Positions 5,006-5,326 of a stretch of DNA of 23,589 bases are shown here, one piece after another. The translations under genes and the position numbers were made by a program. The stretch's first letter is position 1, and every line of letters begins with the position of its first letter. Where the stretch lies: the UHGV virus genome UHGV-0074613; one strand, given 5' to 3'. A model generated the notes under the pieces. That model saw only the letters and a program-made list of their open reading frames with translations. It did not search any database and was not told where the DNA came from. Origin of the DNA: a virus.

Positions 5006-5326
5006 TTAGAAATATTCACCGTGATCGTGCATTAATCTATTCAGGATGATATGTGCCTCTTCAGTGGAGTTCGCCTTCATTGCTTCTTCGATTCCCCTGG
5101 CGAGAGCAATGGCATCACATTCGAAAGAATCTGCTCTTGACTCCCATTCGCCAGCATCCTCTTCAGCATCTAAAATACGATCTTCAAACTCACCTTCGAG
5201 CTCTCGACGCACTTCATACCGAAGCTGCTGGCGAATGATGTCAGACGCCTCATCAAACGGAAGTACAGCCAGAATGTTTTCTGGGGCATGCGTTCCGTAT
5301 TTGATTGCTAACTCATTAGCTGACAT
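5006..5326 (-). CDS. Hypothetical highly acidic protein (106 aa); first gene of leftward operon
   Basis: About 26 Asp/Glu in 106 residues; SD AGGAGG 4 nt upstream of ATG, directly abutting the U-tract of an upstream terminator. Confidence 0.6.
   Translation of the reverse strand: MSANELAIKYGTHAPENILAVLPFDEASDIIRQQLRYEVRRELEGEFEDRILDAEEDAGEWESRADSFECDAIALARGIEEAMKANSTEEAHIILNRLMHDHGEYF

Follow-up and report, generated by a model that had tools for sequence, protein, structure and literature searches.

A conserved acidic early-left protein of lambdoid phages and its tentative reading as a mimic-type inhibitor

Introduction

What is the function of a small, strongly acidic protein encoded at the head of the leftward early operon of a lambdoid prophage? 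This question is raised by UHGV virus genome UHGV-0074613, of which we analysed one stretch of 23,589 nucleotides (the window). Between positions 5,006 and 5,326 it holds a gene for a protein of 106 amino acids, which a sequence-only reading had put forward as a candidate DNA mimic on the model of Ocr and ArdA. Our analysis suggests that a mimic-type inhibitor, outside the known mimic families, is the single most likely mechanism; judged from composition and genomic context, we give it a probability of roughly 0.3.

Comparative evidence for a selected gene

The open reading frame (ORF) reads leftward from an ATG start codon, close behind a strong ribosome-binding site (RBS):

5006..5326, minus strand: coding sequence of the acidic protein, PHROG 13002 family; identified by ORF, composition, PHROG match, ratio of nonsynonymous to synonymous substitutions (dN/dS) and AlphaFold2 model
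5331..5336, minus strand: Shine-Dalgarno sequence AGGAGG, 4 nt 5' of the ATG; read from the sequence, with GGAGG kept in 34 of 35 aligned loci

We found that 26 of the 106 residues are Asp or Glu (18 Glu and 8 Asp; 24.5%), the highest such fraction among the 34 ORFs of the window (the runner-up reaches 18.1%), and that the protein has a net charge of -16 and a pI of 4.40. The figure of about 25 percent Asp/Glu given by the sequence-only reading was thus borne out; its remark that basic residues are few is true only in a relative sense, as the protein contains 8 Arg and 2 Lys (10 of 106; 9.4%).

Several comparisons bear on whether this ORF is a gene. Against the closest relative, a Logan contig (L004) whose protein is 89% identical, dN/dS is 0.085 (dS 0.81, dN 0.069). 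The 106-codon ORF is intact in 38 of 40 related loci, and the PHROG 13002 hidden Markov model (HMM) matches the protein over its full length (E=3.7e-41), with residues 1-106 falling on profile positions 1-106 of 107. Because of the low dN/dS, the intact ORF and the full-length match, we conclude from sequence comparison that the acidic ORF is a real, selected gene. Its DNA is only 84% identical to that of L004 (5006-5326 compared with L004 6001-6321), whereas both flanks are 97% identical; this difference suggests that alleles have been exchanged by recombination inside a conserved module.

A predicted helical rod with a conserved acidic face

AlphaFold2, run on an alignment of 31 sequences, returned a model with a mean predicted local distance difference test (pLDDT) of 88.4 and a predicted template-modelling score (pTM) of 0.52, in which helices span residues 3-10, 15-21, 24-83 and 88-101. 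A single-sequence run gave a matching topology. The acidic protein is predicted from these models to be an elongated, all-helical rod built around a helix of ~60 residues. It probably needs to self-associate, since a 60-residue helix in a protein of 106 residues is implausible as an isolated monomer. Family-averaged hydrophobicity follows a clean 3-4 heptad pattern at residues 58-83, and a hydrophobic stripe of i+4 spacing runs through residues 27-54, flanked by stripes of Arg (32/36/40) and Glu (38/42/46). The family tolerates indels of 4 and 7 residues within the long helix.

Across the family, Asp and Glu make up 20-27% of residues, net charge ranges from -8 to -20 and pI from 4.05 to 4.82, at identities down to ~30%; by these sequence measures, acidity is a conserved family property despite divergence. 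The charge is concentrated in residues 42-62 (net -10 in the query; family mean -7.1), and a sequence-level analysis places this acidic face of the long helix opposite the hydrophobic seam. A strongly negative net charge and a high Asp/Glu content, kept in relatives, are features of the DNA-mimic class, and both are found here. The strongest conservation lies not in the acidic stretch but in the N-terminal 30 residues, which include an invariant K9 in an LxLKY motif.

A rare family in varied early-operon contexts

PHROG 13002 carries the annotation 'unknown function' and no Pfam assignment; it is a rare, conserved and uncharacterised family of Enterobacteriaceae phages. A word-indexed search of 5.8 billion proteins yielded one cluster for the acidic protein, an exhaustive HMMER scan of 1.84 billion representatives yielded 19 matches, and a profile search with the family yielded 34 clusters. 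All database homologues are unnamed or called 'hypothetical protein', and they come from Raoultella, Klebsiella, Serratia, Chania and Salmonella. The homologues in annotated phages are those of HK225 (gp38), Flyfo siphovirus Tbat2_3 and the Klebsiella Lastavirus phages SopranoGao, LASTA, SJM3 and ZX1. Both HK225 gp38 (YP_007112171; 55% identity to the acidic protein) and the Lastavirus 'hypothetical proteins' (for example SopranoGao gp64; 37-41% identity) are true homologues, and they share the length, helical pattern and acidity of the window protein. HK225 gp38 (L001 4884-5321) is annotated as 145 aa, which is 39 codons too long and runs through the conserved leader and terminator; the conserved start yields 106 aa. 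The 212 aa of a representative (P0004) likewise result from an artefactually early start.

Within E. coli, the gene and its upstream module occur in 1 of 5,426 complete genomes. The single match to the family in a plasmid database is an HK225-like prophage element, and that search did not find the family in conjugative plasmids. Used alone as query, the window protein retrieved no related loci from genome contigs or viral contigs; the related loci were gathered with a family sub-alignment and a DNA motif of the leader. Literature searches by accession numbers, PHROG id or HK225 found no paper on the acidic protein. Similarly, sequence and profile searches found no relative in Pfam, NCBIfam or among solved structures, the sequence-profile search of the Protein Data Bank (PDB) returning coiled-coil noise only (best E=0.018). 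PADLOC matches to LeoBC/LeoA (best E=1.7e-4) and Pfam matches to HSCB_C, VASP_tetra and DivIVA are most simply read as coiled-coil or compositional.

The acidic gene lies on the leftward strand between the immunity region and int, a placement that is alike in 30+ loci, and no other protein-coding gene separates it from the putative OL/PL. The promoter-proximal position noted by the sequence-only reading therefore stands, with the nuance that ~580 nt, holding a tRNA-Arg(UCU), a conserved structured leader and three terminator-like hairpins, separate the putative PL from the start of the gene. The accompanying claim, that this position typically holds anti-host genes, is right in part: the first PL gene of lambda is N, and its anti-host genes, ral among them, come later.

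We found the gene in early operons of several unrelated settings and phage backbones. It is PL-proximal behind the leader in the window, in L004, in the E. coli GDSC2BY4G prophage and in 35 IMG/VR contigs, and PL-proximal also in L012. It follows kil and directly precedes xis/int in a Raoultella/Klebsiella group (L006-L009). In HK225 it is flanked by small ORFs and kil, in Flyfo Tbat2_3 by N and cIII/kil, and another prophage group (L018 and relatives) has it downstream of a YqaJ-type recombination module. In the Lastavirus phages it sits inside early gene blocks. The SopranoGao block (L017) also encodes, 3 kb upstream, a protein with a Tad2-like anti-Thoeris domain (2655-3251; PF11195, E=3e-23) and, immediately downstream, a WDGH-domain protein. 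No neighbouring gene is conserved across all of these contexts, so that the gene looks, from its genomic settings, like a mobile passenger of early operons whose accessory role is autonomous and aimed at the host, not at a partner within the phage.

In 28-34 loci of the PL-proximal clade, the leader is followed by the acidic gene, then D1 (98-160 aa), then the gene for a ParB-like helix-turn-helix (HTH) protein (D2; 274-346 aa). The window has D1 but lacks D2:

4602..4898, minus strand: D1, 98 aa, the gene that follows the acidic gene; the two are syntenic in 34 loci

A mimic-type inhibitor as the favoured reading

We propose that the acidic protein is made early and acts autonomously, as an accessory factor of lambdoid phages and of some other phages of enterobacteria. 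The predicted amphipathic rod, consisting of two short N-terminal helices, the ~60-residue helix and a C-terminal helix folded back, would self-associate via its hydrophobic seam, and its central segment (residues 42-62) would present a conserved polyanionic face. Like a mimic or decoy, this face could then occupy, stoichiometrically, the surface with which a protein of the host or of a rival element binds nucleic acid, and so block that protein. Candidate targets would be a restriction or BREX-type enzyme, or RecBCD. With respect to the latter, tblastn searches with lambda Gam, Bet, Exo, Ral and Ea10 and with T7 Ocr and gp5.9 found none of these proteins in 64 loci (615 kb) that carry the acidic gene or its leader, the complete left operon of the window included; because these phages have no recognisable RecBCD inhibitor, RecBCD may be considered as one candidate. 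Expression would be gated: with a conserved structured leader and a terminator ahead of the gene, the protein would probably be made only upon leftward early read-through.

The conservation of acidity, the placement of charge on one face and the apparent mobility of the gene across early operons make such a mimic plausible at the level of sequence, and the occurrence of a Tad2-like anti-Thoeris gene in the same SopranoGao gene block also speaks for it. A number of observations weigh on the other side. The net charge of -16 is far below the -28 of the more charged T7 Ocr (gp0.3), and the strongly acidic part covers only ~21 residues, or roughly 30 A. The alternating Arg and Glu stripes in the N-terminal half of the long helix are typical of coiled-coil salt bridges; charge on a coiled coil often has unrelated causes, and mimicry is poorly predicted by composition alone. 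Of the 268 anti-defence proteins in EVADES, only 11 are DNA mimics. Finally, the synteny with D1 and the ParB-like HTH gene in the PL-proximal clade could indicate a role internal to the phage.

If the acidic protein does inhibit a DNA-binding defence or repair complex, it would represent a structurally new family among the few mimic-type anti-defence proteins, and a widespread one, present in prophages of Klebsiella, Raoultella, Enterobacter and E. coli as well as in Lastavirus phages. As matters stand, it is one among many uncharacterised acidic accessory ORFs.

Alternative functions

It is possible, and only slightly less probable than the mimic, that the protein is instead a coiled-coil adaptor or regulator of the phage's own proteins, such as D1 or the ParB-like HTH protein, with a part in early regulation or recombination. 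Its acidity would then be a by-product of the coiled coil or a complement to a basic phage partner. The D0-D1-D2(ParB-like) order kept in the PL-proximal clade fits such a role, as do the Arg/Glu stripes that flank the hydrophobic seam at residues 32-50; similarly, the weak database matches are all to coiled-coil or oligomerisation domains (HSCB_C, VASP_tetra, DivIVA and sorting nexin). However, the window itself is without D2, and in HK225, the L006 group, Flyfo Tbat2_3 and Lastavirus the gene has neither D1 nor D2 beside it. These absences count against an adaptor, because a dedicated partner would be expected to travel along.

A host-takeover factor that is neither a mimic nor primarily anti-defence is a tentative candidate as probable as the adaptor, and so again only slightly behind the mimic. 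Its target could be a protease, a division protein, a nucleoid protein or a subunit of RNA polymerase. The accessory position is shared with kil, cIII and similar early-left genes, the terminator insulation is as tight as is typical of host-toxic genes, and conservation peaks in the N-terminal 30 residues, with K9 and LxLKY, instead of in the acidic stretch. This explanation nevertheless points to no specific target, and it leaves the conserved net charge and the central acidic face unexplained.

Much less probable is a more elaborate version of the mimic hypothesis, in which a coiled-coil nucleic-acid mimic of new fold, directed against DNA-targeting immunity or RecBCD, would form part of a counter-defence cassette timed by read-through of the leader and joined in some phages by the tRNA-Arg(UCU). 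The adjacent tRNA would insure the phage against tRNA-cleaving systems that sense such mimics; PARIS is known to sense Ocr. Only some of the related loci carry tRNA-Arg(UCU) ahead of the leader, and we rejected it as an obligatory partner of the gene for that reason. As AGA and AGG make up 21% of the Arg codons in the window ORFs, codon supply is a sufficient explanation for the tRNA.

Comparison with known mimics and other acidic proteins

T7 Ocr is a helical, very acidic, early-expressed and dimeric protein of 117 aa, a DNA-mimic inhibitor of type I restriction-modification (R-M) and BREX. ArdA, a plasmid and transposon anti-restriction DNA mimic expressed early upon entry, has ~166 aa and an alpha/beta three-domain fold. 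The analogy drawn with these two proteins by the sequence-only reading found no support. None of 31 family members matched any Pfam family, Ocr (PF08684), ArdA (PF07275) and Gam included, at E<=1. Foldseek searches with the model found nothing in the PDB or BFVD at E<=0.001, and the predicted all-alpha rod, without a specific structural neighbour, is unrelated in fold to either Ocr or ArdA. ArdA and the acidic protein are alike in being acidic; they differ in that the model is all-alpha and has 106 aa. In Ocr, the charge covers the whole surface, whereas in the acidic protein it is borne by one central helix segment.

Small and early-encoded though it is, the acidic protein is thus very unlikely to be a divergent homologue of Ocr or ArdA that blocks type I R-M enzymes through mimicry of bent B-DNA. 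A local likeness to Ocr does exist: when the family was aligned by hhalign to the single T7 sequence, 28 columns matched the C-terminal helix of Ocr (E=0.0082, probability 4.9%). With a profile of 20 Ocr family sequences, the best match fell elsewhere and reached a probability of 1.8%. We regard the resemblance, which is gone with the family profile, as a chance likeness of acidic amphipathic helices, and reject membership in the Ocr and ArdA families both as homology and as fold.

Helical acidic DNA mimics do have precedents in lambda Gam and T7 gp5.9, both of them small, acidic, alpha-helical, dimeric DNA-mimic inhibitors of RecBCD. Gam is in addition an accessory gene of the early-left operon, a class of position that it shares with the acidic gene. 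A viral DNA mimic has been described (PMC7617805). Our hhalign comparisons of the family gave probabilities of 0.2% for lambda Gam and 0.6% for T7 gp5.9, and both proteins are absent from the matches listed in the fold searches with the acidic protein model. We take the mimic of the cited paper to be T7 gp5.9.

Lambda Ea10, an early-left accessory protein of ~120 aa, is comparably acidic (net charge -14, pI 4.28) and shows no sequence relationship to the family (hhalign probability 0.1%); we know of no function assigned to it. A strongly acidic ORF is not rare in itself, and by these sequence comparisons the signal gains weight only through its conservation in the family. Together, the sequence and model comparisons place the acidic protein outside every known mimic family.

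The least credible proposal, that 5006..5326 is a chance ORF in non-coding or antisense-coding DNA, could appeal to an overlapping ORF of 112 aa on the opposite strand (5046..5384, plus strand) and is refuted by the comparative data, namely the dN/dS of 0.085, the conserved length and intact ORF in 38 loci and the at least two stops that each of the three antisense frames carries in homologues from related loci, and opposed further by the strong RBS, the full-length PHROG match and the confident AlphaFold2 model.

A structured leader between the putative PL and the gene

We identified the following features upstream of the acidic gene, in the order in which a leftward transcript would meet them; the last two lie within the leader.

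5919..5948, minus strand: putative PL (TTGCAT-18-TATAGT) with operator palindrome CTACTTAAAGTAG at 5926-5938; placed by palindrome and sequence
5824..5860, minus strand: first hairpin after PL (GGCTGTCAC-N12-GTGACAGCC plus ATCTTTTT), terminator-like; read from the sequence, identical in L004
5666..5741, minus strand: tRNA-Arg(UCU) in the leftward early transcript; ARAGORN, Rfam 70.5 bits
5337..5645, minus strand: conserved structured non-coding leader, ~310 nt; core motif, RNAalifold
5585..5645, minus strand: leader 5' module, single-stranded GCUGUGUGUAGUC plus GGCGGUACC...GGUACCGCC hairpin plus T-run; DicF-like, with a covarying stem
5337..5362, minus strand: intrinsic-terminator-like hairpin GCCCGC-N6-GCGGGC plus T-run, directly 5' of the RBS; terminator scan, kept in 34 of 35 loci

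The window holds just two copies of the 13-bp palindrome CTACTTNNAGTAG, one immediately left of cI (5926-5938) and the other in the cI-cro interval (6799-6811); 0.14 matches would be expected by chance. OL/PL was placed at ~5919-5948 because the copy left of cI is embedded there in promoter-like sequence; the PL hexamers are inferred and weak, and a consensus promoter scan made no call at this site. A long stem of 15 bp (5745-5759/5795-5809) precedes the tRNA. L004 differs from the window here by an insertion of ~340 bp (L004 ~5140-5480), located between its first hairpin and its tRNA and holding a small ORF.

The leader is tightly linked to the gene. Among the 37 IMG/VR contigs that contain its 29-nt core, TTGGTGATGGTAATANCGCCATCTCAACC, the next ORF is the acidic gene in 35. 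RNAalifold, applied to 35 leader sequences, predicted 77 base pairs, 11 of which show compensatory changes, and one predicted long-range helix pairs with, and so sequesters, the Shine-Dalgarno region. The leader ends in the GC-rich terminator, 8 nt before the RBS; its 3' third, this hairpin included, is also found upstream of the HK225 homologue. The 5' module, whose terminator-like hairpin lies at 5585-5620, scored 18.9 bits against the Rfam DicF model (E=0.2), below the gathering score. A DicF-like module without the rest of the leader occurs in Citrobacter phage phiNP, Shigella phage SfII and Escherichia phage Kati.

The stretch from PL to the gene (5337-5948) holds no N-like ORF, in the window or in most relatives, and no put-like RNA was identified in it. 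Expression of the acidic gene would be confined to conditions of read-through or antitermination, such as follow induction or infection. The tight linkage of a covarying leader to the gene and the lack of an N-type antiterminator offer a tractable case for the gating of early-left genes in N-less lambdoid phages, and the leader RNA and the N-less, terminator-rich early-left region are more unusual features than the protein itself.

Two other elements of this region were considered and set aside. A possible leader peptide or plus-strand ORF (5413..5661) in the leader is not conserved: relatives carry indels in it and have lost its start codon. A 14-nt element, GTGGAGAACTRACG, shared by the leader and the rightward operon, at first resembled a nut- or put-like site and was dropped as a recurrent RBS context. 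That context, GGAGAACTAAC together with a start codon, precedes the genes starting at 4898 (minus strand) and 7664 (plus strand), at sites 4900-4915 and 7649-7666, and a copy without a start codon (GGAGAACTGAC) lies inside the leader at 5490-5505.

Other genes of the window

The window as a whole is a lambdoid prophage segment with a run of leftward accessory ORFs. The genes that frame this run are as follows:

50-1039: integrase
1044-1268: xis-like DUF4224 gene
6054..6773, minus strand: cI-type repressor (HTH_3 and Peptidase_S24), with its own terminator at 6020-6037; Pfam, terminator scan

Further genes encode a cro-like YdaS protein, CII (CP76), replication proteins, an MT-A70 methyltransferase, an endolysin and terminase. 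The MT-A70 family DNA methyltransferase (9363-10031, plus strand) belongs to the rightward operon; self-methylation by this enzyme is a possible route to restriction evasion that would be independent of the acidic gene. Finally, an Rfam int-alpA RNA motif (16277-16339, plus strand) scored 41.8 bits, above the gathering score, and lies far from the integrase, just upstream of a DUF551 ORF (16361-16738).
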